Virus record (IMG/VR): IMGVR_UViG_2554235432_000003 | Location: 54,909-74,908 of that record | Source: an uncultured virus (IMG/VR IMGVR_UViG_2554235432_000003) | Taxonomy: Duplodnaviria; Heunggongvirae; Uroviricota; Caudoviricetes | Strand: one strand, 5' to 3' | DNA: 20,000 nucleotides | Shown: one piece after another, positions 1 through 17,658 of the stretch | How positions within the stretch are numbered: the first letter of the stretch is position 1 | How the letters are laid out: the number at the start of each line of letters is the position of its first letter | Program-made: the position numbers and the translations under genes | The notes under the pieces: generated by a model | Seen by the model: the letters and a program-made list of their open reading frames with translations, nothing else | Database searches by the model: none | Told to the model about the DNA's origin: nothing

Positions 1-35
1 TCATCTTGTTAGTACTTAGCTCGCCAGCTTACTAA
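1..35 (+). CDS. 3' end of Ibs-like small hydrophobic peptide (type I toxin candidate), 5'-truncated by window edge
   Basis: Frame from nt 3 reads ILLVLSSPAY-stop (TAA 33-35). It has the same type of C-terminus as the peptide at 16329-16391 (LIVLSSSAY) and E. coli IbsC (MMRLVIILIVLLLISFSAY). Confidence 0.7.
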   Translation, partial: ILLVLSSPAY

Positions 36-80
36 TTTGATGATAATTTAACGAGAGGGAGAAATCTCTCTCGTTCTTCA
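1..80 (-). ncRNA. Putative Sib-like cis-antisense RNA (5' part), copy 1
   Basis: Minus-strand promoter at 87-115 predicts a start near 80. An 11-bp stem at 50-75 follows, then sequence antisense to the peptide ORF. The 3' end lies outside the window. Confidence 0.55.
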
Positions 81-86
81 AAACTA

Positions 87-115
87 ATGTTAAGGATTTA
101 TTATGGCGATGTCAA
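87..115 (-). promoter_or_regulatory. Sigma70-type promoter for antisense RNA copy 1
   Basis: TTGACA (115-110), 17-nt spacer, TAACAT (92-87); overlaps the RBS and start of ORF 103..291. Confidence 0.6.
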
Positions 116-291
116 GAACCGAAATTGTTAAACGCAGTGAGGAAAAACACGGTATTAAACTCAAAGCCTTCAAACTTCCTTTAGTTGTGATTGCTGAAAT
201 TGAGCAGTTAAGTACAGAGTTAAATATTCCACAAAATCAGTTGATTATTCAAGCCGTTGAGCTGTTTAAGCAATCGCAGAAAGGGGCGTAA
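103..291 (+). CDS. Small ribbon-helix-helix-like DNA-binding protein
   Basis: AAGGA RBS. Pattern of beta-strand KAFKL, helix (VVIAEIEQLSTELN) and helix (QNQLIIQAVELF) is typical of RHH/CopG-like folds. Confidence 0.7.
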   Translation: MAMSRTEIVKRSEEKHGIKLKAFKLPLVVIAEIEQLSTELNIPQNQLIIQAVELFKQSQKGA

Positions 292-2906: not shown

Positions 2907-3433
2907 TTTGTTGCTCCTGTGTTTTCTTCACCATTTCCGCTAATGCTCCGAACATCTGCGGTTCAAGTACAATCGTGCTGGCGTTGGCTCTTCTGTCTAG
3001 CATTAGGCGGACATTGCCGTTTTTATCTACGAGATAGCCATTTAAGCCGTAAGGGGTAAATGGTTTGCGTTTGGGCTGTGATGGCTTCGGCTCAGGCTCA
3101 ACTTGTTCTGTTGGTGCTGTTTCAATCTCAACTTGTTCCGTCGGTGCTATTTGCTCAACCTGCTCTGCTTGGATAACTGTTACTTTTAGCCCAACTTTTT
3201 TAGCTTGCTCAATTACAATCGGATTATGCCCTTCGATTTCAGGGTAGTGAGGGATAGCTCTTTTACCGACTAAGCCTTTTTGACTGTTATATCTATCAAT
3301 GGCTTTGTTTAAATTTCGGATAGCAAGAATTTCCGATGTCATTGGTACGCCTTGAAACTCTAGGTGTTTATCCACCCACATTTCACCGAAGTATTTTTTA
3401 TTTGGGTTTTTGTAAAATTTGAAGTTTGATCAT
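2893..3433 (-). CDS. Hypothetical phage protein with internal (A)PTEQVE repeats; probable start 3433 with a 1-nt insertion near 3425-3430
   Basis: ORF 2893..3381 stays open upstream (NFKFYKNPNKKYFGE). An ATG overlapping the previous stop (ATGA, with AGGAG RBS) is one base out of frame. Confidence 0.65.
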
Positions 3434-3750
3434 CTTTTTGCTCCTACAATCAGTTTGTTAAGTTGGTTTTGGTTATGTTGTTTAATCAGCTTCACATCTT
3501 CACCTGTAACGTTATCAGGCGGTGGAAGATGTAGGGCTAATGCGTTGTAATTTACCTCTTCAGGGGTGATTTCAGCTTGTTTGAAGTCATCTTCCGTCCA
3601 AATCTTTTCTGCTTGGCAATTGCTTTCTACGGGCAGAGTAGAGACAAGCTCAGGCTCTTCACAGCCAGTTAAACTTCCGCCTGTCACAAAGGCGATAAGC
3701 AAGGCACCGAGTAGGTATTTCAGGTTGAGTTTTTTGATAAGTGTCTTCAT
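3430..3750 (-). CDS. Putative phage lipoprotein
   Basis: Basic N-terminus, hydrophobic core (YLLGALLIAFV), lipobox LTGC; AAGGA RBS. Confidence 0.7.
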   Translation of the reverse strand: MKTLIKKLNLKYLLGALLIAFVTGGSLTGCEEPELVSTLPVESNCQAEKIWTEDDFKQAEITPEEVNYNALALHLPPPDNVTGEDVKLIKQHNQNQLNKLIVGAKR

Positions 3751-4485: not shown

Positions 4486-4540
4486 TTTGATTGTCCTTTG
4501 AGATAAGTTTTTAAACTCACCACCGCAGAGACCAATCATT

Positions 4541-4619
4541 GGTGGTGAACTGAACAGAATTGGTCTTACCGCTCTCAAAGGTACACGGCGTCCTTTCGGA
4601 CTTCCATTCAGCCCACCAT
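4541..4619 (-). ncRNA. c4: c4-type antisense RNA (phage P1 C4 family)
   Basis: ATGGTGGGCTGAATGG...GTCCGAAAGGAC...TTCTGTTCAGTTCACCACC fold. Loop elements CCTTTGAGA (4581-4573) and AGACCAAT (4566-4559) are complementary to two target pairs in the same transcript. Confidence 0.85.
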
Positions 4620-4623
4620 TGGA

Positions 4624-5918: not shown

Positions 5919-5995
5919 TGGCGACCGCAGAGAGACTCGAACTCTCAACCTACTGCTTAGAAGGCAGTTGCTCTATCCGATTGAGCTATGCGGTC
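5919..5995 (-). tRNA. tRNA-Arg(UCU), prophage-encoded
   Basis: 77 nt: GACCGCA/TGCGGTC acceptor stem, GCTC/GAGC D stem, ACTGC-CTTCTAA-GCAGT anticodon arm, GAGAG-TTCGAGT-CTCTC T arm, encoded CCA. Confidence 0.95.
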
Positions 5996-15097: not shown

Positions 15098-15638
15098 ATG
15101 CAAATGCTGTGGTGGTGAGTTTAAGTCTGCGGATAGCTTTAGAAAATGGTGTAGTGCTGAATGTGGTGTGAAACTTGCCAAAATAGCCCAAGAGAAAGCA
15201 CGTCAAAAAGCCATAGAAAAGCGAAATCGAGAAGAAAGGGCAAAGATTAAAGCAACGAGAGAACGCTTAAAATCTCGTTCTGAATGGCTTAAAGACGCTC
15301 AGGCTGTTTTTAATGAATACATTCGTTTACGAGATAAAGATGAGCCTTGTATTTCGTGCCAGCGTTTTCATCAAGGTCAATATCACGCAGGGCATTATCG
15401 CACGGTAAAAGCGATGCCAGAGCTGAGATTTAATGAGGACAATGTTCATAAACAATGCAGTGCTTGTAACAATCATTTGAGCGGAAACATTACAGAATAC
15501 CGTATCAACCTTGTACGTAAAATCGGGGCAGAGCGAGTAGAAGCATTGGAAAGCTATCACCCTCCTGTGAAGTGGTCGGATGAGGATTGTAAGGAAATTA
15601 TTAAAACGTATAGGGCGAAGATTAAGGAGTTGAAATGA
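15069..15638 (+). CDS. ninG: NinG/Rap HNH-type recombination endonuclease
   Basis: CKCC...CSAEC, FNEYIRLRD..PCISC, HAGHYR and NVHKQCSACNNHLSGN motifs. Confidence 0.92.
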   Translation: MIKPKVKKRKCKCCGGEFKSADSFRKWCSAECGVKLAKIAQEKARQKAIEKRNREERAKIKATRERLKSRSEWLKDAQAVFNEYIRLRDKDEPCISCQRFHQGQYHAGHYRTVKAMPELRFNEDNVHKQCSACNNHLSGNITEYRINLVRKIGAERVEALESYHPPVKWSDEDCKEIIKTYRAKIKELK

Positions 15639-16013
15639 TTAGATTGCATATCAGCATTGACGATATTTTGAATGTTTGGGTTCGTCGCTGGGCTTCTCAT
15701 CGTGGGTGCCGTGGTTATCCATCATTACAATCCTTTATGCCTGAGGCGACTGTTAAAATTACCAAGTATAGTATTGATGAACTGTCAGAGGAACATTATC
15801 TTAAGCTAGATGAAGCTGTGATGACATTACACGATTTGAACTTAGAAGCCTATCAGGTGTTAATGGCGGTGGTTTTTACAGGGGCAGGATAAGAAGAATA
15901 TTTGTCTTGAAATGCATATTTCACCTACTACATTTGATAACCGTTTACGCACCGCACGAGATTTTATGGAAGGGGCCGTGTTTGGTTCGGGGTTGATTAG
16001 ACTGAAGTTTTAG
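15635..16013 (+). CDS. Late antiterminator Q, frameshifted at ~15872
   Basis: WVRRW...GYPS N-terminus. Removing one G gives VFLQGQDKKNICLEMHISPTTFDNRLRTARDFMEG (HTH) to TAG 16013. Last gene of the nin region. Confidence 0.75.
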
Positions 16014-16021
16014 GCGTATTG

Positions 16022-16240
16022 CTACGCCTGATGTTGCCGATAAATTTCACAAAGTTTTTTAATGGCTTCGGCTTTCTTGCCGCCGATTTCAGCAAGTATT
16101 GCCACAAATTCGTCCGCAACAGGCGTTTCCATACGCACAGAAAATTGCTTAACCTTGCCTTCAGCAAGCATACGTTTGTTATATTCGTTCGCAGTTTTAG
16201 AACGAAGTTTGCGAGAATGTTCAGTCATTGAATTTGCCAT
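16022..16240 (-). CDS. Small ribbon-helix-helix-like protein
   Basis: Strand KQFSVRM, helix PVADEFVAILAEIG, helix KAEAIKKLCE; AGGT RBS. Confidence 0.7.
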   Translation of the reverse strand: MANSMTEHSRKLRSKTANEYNKRMLAEGKVKQFSVRMETPVADEFVAILAEIGGKKAEAIKKLCEIYRQHQA

Positions 16241-16250
16241 AGTTACCTAC

Positions 16251-16279
16251 TTGATTTTTTAAAACGTTGGTTGTATAGT
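16251..16279 (+). promoter_or_regulatory. Promoter for antisense RNA copy 2
   Basis: TTGATT (16251-56)-N17-TATAGT (16274-79). Confidence 0.65.
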
Positions 16280-16285
16280 TTAGGA

Positions 16286-16441
16286 ACTGCCTAGCAGTGG
16301 GGGCAACCACCGCTAGGACTTTATCTGATTAGTAAGCTGATGAGCTTAACACAATCAGAATTAAGAAGATGATGATTTGATAGGTTTTCATCGTCTTAGT
16401 TCCTATTTTTAGTTGAGCGGTGAAAGCCGCTCTTCTTATTT
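16286..16441 (+). ncRNA. Putative Sib-like antisense RNA (~150 nt), copy 2
   Basis: Upstream promoter, 5' hairpin 16290-16317, full overlap of the peptide ORF and RBS, terminator GAGCGGT-GAAA-GCCGCTC (16415-32) plus T-rich tail. Confidence 0.65.
16329..16391 (-). CDS. Ibs-like 20-aa toxin peptide MKTYQIIIFLILIVLSSSAY
   Basis: Manual translation; AGGA RBS; Ibs-type length, hydrophobic core and SxxAY end. Confidence 0.8.
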   Translation of the reverse strand: MKTYQIIIFLILIVLSSSAY

Positions 16442-16465
16442 CCGCCCTATTGCGAAAACAAATAT

Positions 16466-16507
16466 ATTATAATTTACAAATAATAATTTATCAAGAATTA
16501 TTTGTAA
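16466..16507 (-). promoter_or_regulatory. Toxin-RHH operon promoter with operator
   Basis: TTGATA (16494-89)-N17-TATAAT (16471-66); perfect 11-bp inverted repeat TTACAAATAAT (16474-84) / ATTATTTGTAA (16497-507) around the -35. Confidence 0.7.
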
Positions 16508-16536
16508 GTTTTCAGATTTTCATTCAAGGTTATCAA

Positions 16537-16713
16537 ATGTTTAACTTCAGAAAACAAAAGCAACAAGTTGAGCTAATTGAGCAATTACAAGCAGAAATTG
16601 AGGAACTAAAAGCAGAAAACTACCGCTTGAGAGATTTGCTTTCAAGAGAGTGGCAAGAAAAACGCCGTTTTATGAAGATGATAAACGGCAAAAAGAAAAT
16701 TGCCACAGATTAA
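16537..16713 (+). CDS. Small coiled-coil protein (58 aa)
   Basis: AAGG RBS; heptad-like LIEQLQAEIEELKAENYRLRDLL. Confidence 0.55.
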   Translation: MFNFRKQKQQVELIEQLQAEIEELKAENYRLRDLLSREWQEKRRFMKMINGKKKIATD

Positions 16714-16765
16714 TCAACAACGATTATCTGTGAAGTCGTGTGAATTTTAATTGTTCAAAAAGTGA

Positions 16766-16878
16766 TTGACGTCGTGCGAGAAAAGTAGTACATTTCAGCT
16801 ATGCTTGCAACTCGTACAAGCGAGAGAAAGCGAAATGATTTTGTAGCCCTGATCGGAAACGGTCGGGGCTTTTTGTTT
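16766..16878 (+). promoter_or_regulatory. Late promoter pR' and tR' terminator
   Basis: TTGACG-N17-TACATT (16766-16794), -10-like TATGCT near +1 (possible pause element), and AGCCCTGATCG/CGGTCGGGGCT stem plus T-run (~16846-16878). Confidence 0.7.
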
Positions 16879-16883
16879 GGGGG

Positions 16884-17094
16884 TTAGGATGGAACAACGA
16901 GATATTCTGTTAAAAAACGGTGAAGTAGTTCAAGAAAAATCTCAATGTCACTATGCCGCTGGCTGGCCATCTCGACGTATATCAGACTGCGTTCCTCACT
17001 TCCAAAATAGGAAAATTTATCCATTTGCTGGCAATAATGACGTACCACAAGATTAAACATATCTAGTGGTACTGAGTAAATTTGATAAAGGTTA
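16884..17094 (-). pseudogene. Orphan paralogous C-terminal module of the 17095..17658 protein
   Basis: Open frame ending ...LELLHRFLTEYLVVPS-stop, aligning with ...HKALRHFLTQYLVLPL-stop. Confidence 0.7.
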
Positions 17095-17658
17095 TCACAA
17101 TGGTAGAACTAAATATTGCGTTAAAAAATGCCGCAGAGCTTTATGGTGAAAATCGACCATTTGTCGATCCTGAAAGTGGAACTCTAACCCTAGCAGGTTG
17201 CGAAGCTCTAAGTCGTCTTGGTATTGGATTTTCCGAAAGTAGACTTGAACCTGATCTTTTAGATAAGTTGCGTAAGAATCTCGCTGCTCTTTAGTAAAAC
17301 CTGTTGTGAGTTTTTCTATGAAAAAAAGGTGAAGATCCTTTTCGAGTTGAACTAAGAAGTTAAAGTTATTTGCAATTTTGGCATCTTTAAATGTGAATTC
17401 AATATAAGAGAAATGGCTATTATCATATTTTCCTATCCAGTGAGAACAACCTAGTGTGATAAAGGGGCTATCAGGCTTGTTAAGTTCAATAAGTGTGGTT
17501 TTAAGTTCTGGTAGTTGAGCAATTTCTAGGATTTCATCTATTTTTTCAGGATGATTAACTAAATCAATTCCACCTGCATTTGGTGTTGGATTTTGGCAAT
17601 CTTCAGATCCATTTGATGGTCGATATGGAAATTTGGTATAACCTTCACGAAAGTACAT
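17095..17658 (-). CDS. Moron protein of unknown function (187 aa)
   Basis: Low GC, antisense to the late operon, GAGGA RBS, extended -10 TGCTAGAAT upstream. Confidence 0.8.
   Translation of the reverse strand: MYFREGYTKFPYRPSNGSEDCQNPTPNAGGIDLVNHPEKIDEILEIAQLPELKTTLIELNKPDSPFITLGCSHWIGKYDNSHFSYIEFTFKDAKIANNFNFLVQLEKDLHLFFIEKLTTGFTKEQRDSYATYLKDQVQVYFRKIQYQDDLELRNLLGLEFHFQDRQMVDFHHKALRHFLTQYLVLPL

Follow-up and report, generated by a model that had tools for sequence, protein, structure and literature searches.

We analysed a stretch of 20,000 nucleotides (nt) from an uncultured virus of the Caudoviricetes (IMG/VR record IMGVR_UViG_2554235432_000003, positions 54,909 to 74,908), hereafter the window, which forms the final 20 kilobases (kb) of a 74.9-kb provirus record. 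On its minus strand, between a gene for a Q-like antiterminator (ending at 16013) and a plus-strand open reading frame (ORF) of 58 amino acids (aa; 16537-16713), lies a compact cassette that we read as a distant Ibs/Sib-type toxin-antitoxin module followed by a gene for a small ribbon-helix-helix (RHH) protein. The cassette begins with a predicted toxin promoter, P_tox (16494..16466, minus strand; -35 TTGATA at 16494-16489, a 17-nt spacer and -10 TATAAT at 16471-16466), which matches the consensus at 11 of 12 positions and is the top-scoring site in the interval 15500-17200, where 12 promoter-like sites are found against 4.4 expected from shuffles; we infer a transcription start near 16459. 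Flanking the -35 is a putative operator, a perfect inverted repeat of 11 base pairs (bp) with the arm TTACAAATAAT (16474-16484 on the plus strand and 16497-16507 on the minus strand), whose 12-bp spacer holds the -35 element. The resulting transcript would carry, in order, a 5' hairpin (hairpin 1, 16438..16459), a second hairpin in the 5' untranslated region (hairpin 2, 16415-16432), the Shine-Dalgarno (SD) region UAGGAACU (16398..16405), an Ibs-like toxin ORF of 20 aa encoding MKTYQIIIFLILIVLSSSAY and ending in SSSAY (16391-16329), a hairpin with an 11-bp stem 3' of this ORF (hairpin 3, 16290..16317), an anti-SD sequence AGUUCCUA (16281..16288) and, finally, the 72-aa RHH gene (16240-16022).

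On the plus strand, a predicted Sib-like promoter (TTGATT-N17-TATAGT, 16251..16279; 9 of 12 consensus positions), whose -35 lies just upstream of the RHH ribosome site on the opposite strand, and an intrinsic terminator (GAGCGGT-GAAA-GCCGCTC followed by TTCTTATTTC, 16415-16432; a 7-bp stem, a GAAA loop and a T-rich tail, the stem being that of hairpin 2 read from the other strand) would delimit an antisense RNA of about 155 nt (16286..16441, both ends inferred) that covers the entire peptide ORF together with its ribosome site. The initial annotation, made from the letters alone, had listed the minus-strand promoter, the 11-bp repeat, the 20-aa ORF, a hairpin and the 72-aa ORF, as well as the plus-strand promoter and the GAAA-loop terminator, and all of these lie where it had put them. 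Every one of these elements is conserved in relatives, including a promoter at the same position as P_tox, and the cassette is thus more than a chance assembly.

The affinity of the peptide and its antisense RNA to the Ibs/Sib family emerges from searches in both directions. A permissive scan with the Rfam model SIB_RNA (RF00113) matches positions 16251-16409 of the plus strand over the full length of the model (32.7 bits, E 2.4e-4). In the reciprocal direction, a covariance model that we built from nine related modules (R1) finds its best match in 12 kb of Escherichia coli K-12 exactly at ibsC/sibC and in the right orientation. In the annotation of that genome IbsC is MMRLVIILIVLLLISFSAY, SibC is 141 nt long and no regulator gene stands beside them, in line with what the initial annotation had given for the E. 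coli locus. Fozo 2010 (PMC2887945), which also discusses an Ibs tree, reports Ibs homologues in the Pasteurellales, with one in Haemophilus influenzae 86-028NP and seven in H. somnus 2336, and the peptide/antisense part of the cassette is therefore not new. The T1TAdb paper, in its account of the family, describes the Ibs/Sib antisense RNA as spanning the whole ORF and lying inside the mRNA, which is also the layout predicted for the cassette. Based on the SIB match, the reciprocal R1 match, the covariation and coding signature set out below and the published Pasteurellales homologues, we propose that the peptide/antisense pair very probably belongs, as a distant member, to the Ibs/Sib family of type I toxin-antitoxin systems, as the initial annotation had suspected.

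The coding signature was read from a survey with R1 of 151 Pasteurellaceae species genomes, which yielded 97 matches in 50 genomes, or 95 modules after two opposite-strand doubles were dropped. An ATG-initiated ORF of 17-23 aa is kept in 94 of the 95 modules (19 aa in 60 of these), giving 70 distinct peptides, and the 94 peptides most often end in AY (68), followed by VY (11), TY (6) and AF (5). Entropy at codon positions 1, 2 and 3 is 1.20, 0.52 and 1.49, such that the second position varies least and the third most. The retention of the ORF, taken together with this pattern, indicates that the peptide is under coding selection. Two further loci are worth recording beside these peptides: L028/L029 (about 1340-1420) and L135 have the same RNA scaffold and an RHH gene, and encode the unrelated 25-26-aa peptides MNDLQHVFIVLVAYLIVMLVITKGR and MNEFDRFCIVLVIFLIIALSCIDNER, which suggests that toxin ORFs may be swappable within the cassette.

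The RNA structures of the module likewise bear marks of selection. The predicted folds of the antisense RNA and the toxin RNA have z-scores of -6.1 and -7.0, with none of 200 shuffles as good in either case. In a set of 73 aligned modules, 68 of them distinct, 93.8% of the cells in the predicted helices can pair, changes on both sides occur in 26 of 28 pairs, and the covariation score of 0.493 compares with at most 0.09 for slid partners and is reached by none of 500 shuffles. A MAFFT alignment of the whole upstream regions recovered almost no consensus structure, with the hairpins misaligned, and single-sequence folds and the covariance model were used in its place. Across all helices G-U pairs outnumber A-C combinations by 85 to 30, which argues that folding of the sense strand is favoured. 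The stem of hairpin 3 (helix 7) has compensatory changes in all ten of its pairs; in the window it lacks a T-run behind it and thus is not a terminator. Hairpin 1 is replaced in diverged relatives by a hairpin of different sequence at the same place. The long-range helix that closes the structure by joining the SD region, as its 5' arm, to the anti-SD sequence, as its 3' arm (helix 1), has compensatory changes in 7/7 pairs, and its 19 G-U against 2 A-C combinations point to selection on the sense strand. Such a helix would hide the ribosome site of the toxin ORF, and SD/anti-SD pairing is described for type I systems in general in the part of the T1TAdb paper that treats them.

Signals of the predicted antisense transcription unit are retained alongside the peptide. 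A promoter-like site with at least 8 of 12 consensus matches occurs at the place of the antisense promoter in 86 of the 95 modules, compared with 27 of 95 shuffled controls, and the terminator stems of relatives differ in sequence and still pair.

We then turn to the third gene. Its 72-aa product, which we place in RHH class 1, has an N-terminal basic helix followed by a strand-helix-helix unit and matches phrog_27481, a family of unassigned function (E 1.9e-42). NCBIfam holds no family for class 1, nor for the second class introduced below. A search at 90% identity returned 19 clusters, all the named ones from Pasteurellaceae, and a profile search reached 93 clusters at E <= 0.001, with a strongly conserved N-terminus, MANSNTEHSKKLRAKTA. 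Six of 38 family members match Pfam RHH_1 (best E 5.2e-5), and a profile search of the PDB lists NikR, DinJ, CopG and ParG among its six best hits, with weak E-values of 0.07-0.5. The AlphaFold2 model (predicted local distance difference test score, pLDDT, 76.6) comprises a helix (residues 7-27), an extended segment (28-38) and two further helices (39-52 and 56-71). Foldseek superposes it on CopG with a template-modelling (TM) score of 0.86 and a root-mean-square deviation of 1.1 Å over 43 residues, the E-value exceeding 0.5 for so small a domain. An exhaustive structural search with VIA-align fills its top ranks almost wholly with RHH proteins (AmrZ, PutA, NikR, Arc, TacA, MazE and omega), at Z-scores of 4-5 that are low in absolute terms owing to the small domain. 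In light of the model, the CopG superposition and these ranks, we regard the RHH fold of the modelled protein as established, in agreement with the initial annotation, which had called the gene RHH-like; the protein would presumably bind DNA.

The RHH gene and the module are frequently associated. The initial annotation had made its reading depend on RHH homologues generally having an Ibs-like ORF upstream. A short hydrophobic ORF stands at the corresponding place upstream in 17/17 of the loci retrieved with the 72-aa protein and in 14/14 of those of the wider family; all 31 relatives, drawn from viral contigs and reference genomes, lie directly downstream of an Ibs-like module. Within the 151 genomes a module precedes 23 of 25 full-length class-1 genes; a further 16 RHH matches are weaker (E 5e-9 to 1e-5) and partial. 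Of the 23, 18 coincide with R1 matches and five are readable directly, among the latter one cut by a contig end, one with an early stop after the ATG and one with a different, 26-aa peptide. For two distant RHH relatives (P0038 and P0034) no locus was found in the viral contigs.

A second family of genes, of 57-72 aa, also occurs downstream of modules, and we term it class 2. It corresponds to phrog_3887, 'transcriptional regulator' (E 8.5e-31), its profile matches CopG (E 3.8e-5), and its AlphaFold2 model (pLDDT 91.8) has the same order of helix, strand, helix and helix as class 1 and fits CopG at 0.8 Å. Between the two classes, profile-to-profile comparison gives only a weak link (E 1.7e-5 and 3.8e-4). 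Among the 95 modules, the following gene belongs to class 1 in 18 cases, to class 2 in 43, a count that depends on a grouping in which the class-2 profile was built from ORFs it then classified, and to neither in 34, so that 61 of the 95 modules are linked to an RHH gene. The three-part arrangement that the initial annotation had put forward is predicted for these 61, with the amendment that the third part comes in two classes and that 34 modules do without it. By genome, an RHH-bearing cassette occurs at least once in 28 of the 50, the other 22 having bare modules only. The cassette is common in Pasteurellaceae and not a one-off. As to the bare modules, some look decayed, and one starts like a frameshifted class-2 gene.

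A cassette of the second kind is present in the same prophage (1-291, plus strand): its promoter and peptide start precede the window, the upstream part being found in L034 (1370-1612). It encodes the peptide MFKYIILVIILLVLSSPAY, followed by a 62-aa class-2 RHH gene (103-291, plus strand), and the spacer of its predicted promoter, TTGATT-N17-TATAAT, holds the palindrome TTAGTTA-GA-TAACTAA.

Relatives of the cassette occur in three phage backgrounds. The cassette is found downstream of Q in the lambdoid group of Glaesserella parasuis, among genes that resemble ogr, hicAB, a methylase and replication gene A in a P2-like phage, and near tail genes in a third phage type; the gene names here were read from ORFs. 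From these placements the cassette appears to be a mobile moron of lambdoid, P2-like and other Pasteurellaceae prophages. The initial annotation had described it as a moron between Q and pR'; it does adjoin a Q-like gene, frameshifted in the window, and pR' was not located. Multiple copies also occur. In L008 a class-1 (1804-2219) and a class-2 (3254-3640) cassette flank a minus-strand ORF of 300 aa with no assigned function; compared with the window, this is an insertion of about 1.4 kb. Genome G031 has 10 R1 matches, with eight identical class-2 cassettes on different contigs; three RHH-bearing cassettes follow one another in G048:C8:30446-31862; and three bare modules stand in tandem, about 335 nt apart, in G044:C5:3395-4229.

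We consider it likely that the peptide and RHH genes form one operon. Neither a promoter nor a terminator is predicted between them in the window, no terminator precedes the class-1 RHH gene in any of 18 relatives, and 10 of 18 class-1 cassettes, as well as many of class 2, have an intrinsic terminator after the RHH ORF; it is this absence of intervening signals, combined with terminators after the RHH gene, that suggests co-transcription. In bare modules of the Haemophilus type the terminator lies 50-70 nt past the module. Hairpin 3 is followed by a T-rich tail in one subfamily, where it may attenuate read-through. The module is covered by contigs from all four RNA sequencing (RNA-seq) runs examined, from four studies, and in run X5 a contig of 971 nt (15742-16713) has a depth of 1682 against 55 for the neighbouring NinG contig, which hints at expression in lysogens. 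Contig breaks at 16214, 16408 and 16437 were considered as RNA ends and rejected, as they coincide with a second cassette variant in the sample.

The case for autorepression is drawn from the promoter palindromes. The arm word TTACAAATAAT has only two matches in the window at up to one mismatch, namely the two arms themselves; the word as such is not rare (at least two matches in 82 of 200 shuffles), and hence the weight of the inverted repeat lies in its palindromic placement. For a comparison across cassettes we took the longest perfect inverted-repeat arm within a 55-nt span over the toxin promoter. In class-1 cassettes the arm averages 9.5 bp, reaches at least 7 bp in 16/18 and beats the cassette's own shuffles in 12/18 (p <= 0.05), compared with a mean of 6.0 bp and at least 7 bp in 6/26 for RHH-less modules, several of these being upstream terminators. 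Pooling both classes against RHH-less modules gives p 0.004 (Mann-Whitney) and p 0.003 (Fisher), values that overstate independence, the sequences compared being mutually related. The sequence of the palindrome varies among cassettes whereas its placement, over the spacer and -10 or around the -35, is kept. We matched the strand residues of the RHH proteins with the operator half-sites by eye and found no correspondence consistent enough. The enrichment of palindromes in the promoters of RHH-bearing cassettes is the sole and indirect basis on which we somewhat favour repression of P_tox by the RHH protein.

Putting these observations together, we propose, with a probability of roughly 0.6 for the reading as a whole, that the locus is an Ibs/Sib-family type I module within a three-gene cassette that includes an RHH autorepressor. 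P_tox would give rise to a bicistronic minus-strand mRNA encoding first the 20-aa hydrophobic membrane peptide and then the 72-aa RHH protein. The toxin part of this mRNA would fold such that the ribosome site pairs with sequence just past the ORF, resulting in poor translation. The opposite-strand RNA of about 155 nt, transcribed from a promoter between the two genes and complementary throughout to the ORF with its ribosome site, would block translation of the toxin or trigger cleavage of its mRNA, as Sib does on ibs. A dimer of the RHH protein would bind the palindrome over P_tox and repress its own operon, placing the toxin under double control, transcriptional and antisense.

Several points weigh against this proposal. 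The SIB_RNA match, at 32.7 bits, falls below the curated gathering score of 56, and the reciprocal R1 match on ibsC/sibC is weak (13.1 bits, E 0.07). The covariation alignment was fitted to the R1 model and is biased towards that structure; we judge the signal real nonetheless, as the slid control stays at or below 0.09. The 72-aa protein of the window itself matches no Pfam family. The RNA-seq data are contigs, which give no strand, start, end or level, and carry-over of DNA is possible. AT-rich promoters form palindromes easily, only 12/18 class-1 cassettes beating their own shuffles, and class-2 promoters are barely enriched (mean arm 6.5 bp, at least 7 bp in 14/32); the relatedness behind the pooled p-values and the circular grouping behind the class-2 count pull in the same direction. 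A weak plus-strand promoter in divergent orientation (16473-16501) overlaps the palindrome of the window; the 58-aa ORF that it precedes, beginning at 16537, could share the operator with the cassette, and the target of the repressor may accordingly exceed the toxin operon. Finally, two of the 25 full-length class-1 genes have no upstream module, nor does one Neisseriaceae-type RHH relative (L126/L127, the same sequence, from a single metagenome scan), from which the partnership of RHH gene and module is best described as frequent, not obligate, and the 34 modules without an RHH gene work, if at all, without it.

The alternative that survives best, unlikely as we hold it to be, takes the RHH gene for an unrelated moron that borrows the toxin promoter and regulates genes of the phage or host outside the cassette, with superinfection immunity as one conceivable role. 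The 34 of 95 modules lacking an RHH gene would be expected under it, as would the two class-1 genes and the Neisseriaceae-type relative that stand without a module, the slight palindrome enrichment in class-2 promoters and the overlap of the window's palindrome with the divergent promoter of the 58-aa ORF. It fits poorly with the absence of the palindrome 11-mer from the rest of the window at up to one mismatch, with the way P_tox palindromes track the class-1 gene (16/18 versus 6/26 RHH-less modules) and with two distant RHH classes occupying the same slot in different phage backgrounds.

A further reading, quite improbable, gives the short ORF the role of a leader peptide or upstream ORF, not of a toxin, by which RHH translation or read-through would be tuned, with the opposite-strand promoter and terminator unused. 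The ORF does belong to the 5' portion of what would be the RHH mRNA, the toxicity and expression of the peptide are themselves predictions from sequence, and the T-rich tail of hairpin 3 in one subfamily could attenuate read-through; yet the similarity to Sib/ibs, the 34 occurrences of the module without a downstream RHH gene, a tandem array among them, the Ibs-like length, hydrophobic core and C-terminal AY kept across 70 variants, and the antisense promoter conserved in 86 of 95 modules all speak for a toxin with its antisense RNA. More improbable again is a type II system in which the RHH protein neutralises a protein toxin, or the peptide, by direct binding, as its many RHH-antitoxin structural neighbours (TacA, MazE, VapB, ParD, RelB and DinJ) might suggest: the toxin-binding part of type II antitoxins is generally located after the RHH domain, whereas here that domain is C-terminal with no tail behind it, no toxin-sized ORF follows on the same strand, the next gene being the convergent Q, and relatives have terminators directly after the RHH ORF.

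The genomic setting is that of a lambdoid prophage, based on a gene content that includes a cI-like repressor, cro, Rha/Ant, O, P, NinB, NinG and the Q-like gene, with a holin, a lysozyme, Rz and the small terminase downstream of the latter. Close relatives of the cassette are found in G. parasuis and Avibacterium paragallinarum, and the host of the prophage is therefore a member of the Pasteurellaceae. A blastn search with 15900-16760 against the phage collection gave no match. The Q-like antiterminator gene (15635-16013, plus strand) is split into frames of 85 and 33 aa; at 15871 relatives are one base shorter than the window (RNA-seq contigs from three runs), and in L008 Q is intact at 125 aa, from which we conclude that the Q of the window is frameshifted or mis-assembled. 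The 58-aa ORF on the other side (16537-16713, plus strand), divergent from the cassette, encodes a coiled coil; all eight G. parasuis-type loci have it with 100% identity across the part that aligns (54-58 aa). Farther downstream, a 58-aa fragment of phrog_18578 (its C-terminal third; 16884-17060, minus strand) adjoins a full copy of 187 aa (17095-17658, minus strand), a partial duplication whose arrangement is kept in relatives. The early region contains a match to the Rfam C4 antisense RNA (4538-4623, minus strand; 57.8 bits, above the gathering score of 45), C4 being the immunity RNA of phages P1 and P7, and a transfer RNA gene (5922-5995, minus strand).

A wider interpretation, tentative and rather unlikely to hold in full, would make the cassette a mobile switch in which the RHH repressor and the antisense RNA restrain the toxin until a stop in transcription frees it, leading to abortive infection or addiction. 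Both brakes would presumably be short-lived, and the toxin mRNA stable and pre-folded; the trigger might be a superinfecting phage that shuts off host transcription, or loss of the prophage. Under this interpretation, diverse palindromes and two RHH classes would constitute private operators that allow several cassettes to coexist (up to 10 matches per genome), and the scaffold would accept unrelated toxin ORFs such as the 25-26-aa peptides of L028 and L135.

More generally, the presence of two distant RHH classes in the same slot, in 61 of 95 modules, points to a recurrent, selected design that pairs a private repressor with an antisense RNA. If the three-gene reading is true, it adds a third component to a classic type I system, offers a clear route to studying the triggers of such toxins and accounts for a moron that is common, and so far unannotated, in prophages of Pasteurellaceae of veterinary and human origin. 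For annotators the rule to be drawn is that peptide ORFs and antisense RNAs of this kind are missed by gene callers. The initial annotation knew of no earlier description of such an arrangement; our literature search likewise met with no account of the cassette or of any type I module that has a regulator gene to itself, with the qualification that the supplementary tables of Fozo 2010, which lay outside the search, may list the loci of our survey. It is thus the third gene, and not the peptide/antisense pair, that seems to be the new element.

Among known systems the cassette is closest in its first two parts to ibs/sib of E. coli, with which it shares a hydrophobic peptide of about 19 aa ending in AY and, by prediction, a cis-antisense RNA of about 140-155 nt that covers the whole ORF inside the mRNA. 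It differs in that the E. coli unit has no protein gene, whereas the cassette mRNA appears to continue into the RHH gene, and in having a promoter palindrome and riding on prophages. To our knowledge, any transcriptional control in type I systems is left to host regulators. In tisB/istR-1, symE/symR and dinQ/agrB, transcription of the toxin is under LexA besides the RNA antitoxin; LexA, however, is global and encoded elsewhere, while the repressor gene of the cassette would travel with its toxin. In the folded toxin mRNAs of aapA and hok the ribosome site is paired with a remote sequence towards the 3' end, and the AapA/IsoA module of Helicobacter pylori and hok/sok are comparable to the cassette in this respect. 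We know of no protein regulator in their loci, and they differ in that no processing step is known for the cassette mRNA. The H. pylori peptides are themselves given as apparent Ibs homologues in the relevant part of Fozo 2010 (PMC2887945). Prophage-borne type I modules include hokW-sokW on Sp5 and yonT-yoyJ/SR6 on SPbeta, with yonT on a polycistronic mRNA; these involve other toxin families, and their abstracts describe no regulator gene. A parallel to the proposed circuit comes from plasmid pMV158, where the small RHH repressor CopG is co-transcribed with repB and the antisense RNAII blocks translation of repB (PMC4485353, PMC5717011). In both, a co-transcribed RHH repressor and an antisense RNA would limit one gene, and both RHH models superpose on CopG at 0.8-1.1 Å; in the cassette the target would be a toxin and not a replication initiator, the order is reversed, with the target first, and the repressor has an extra N-terminal helix.

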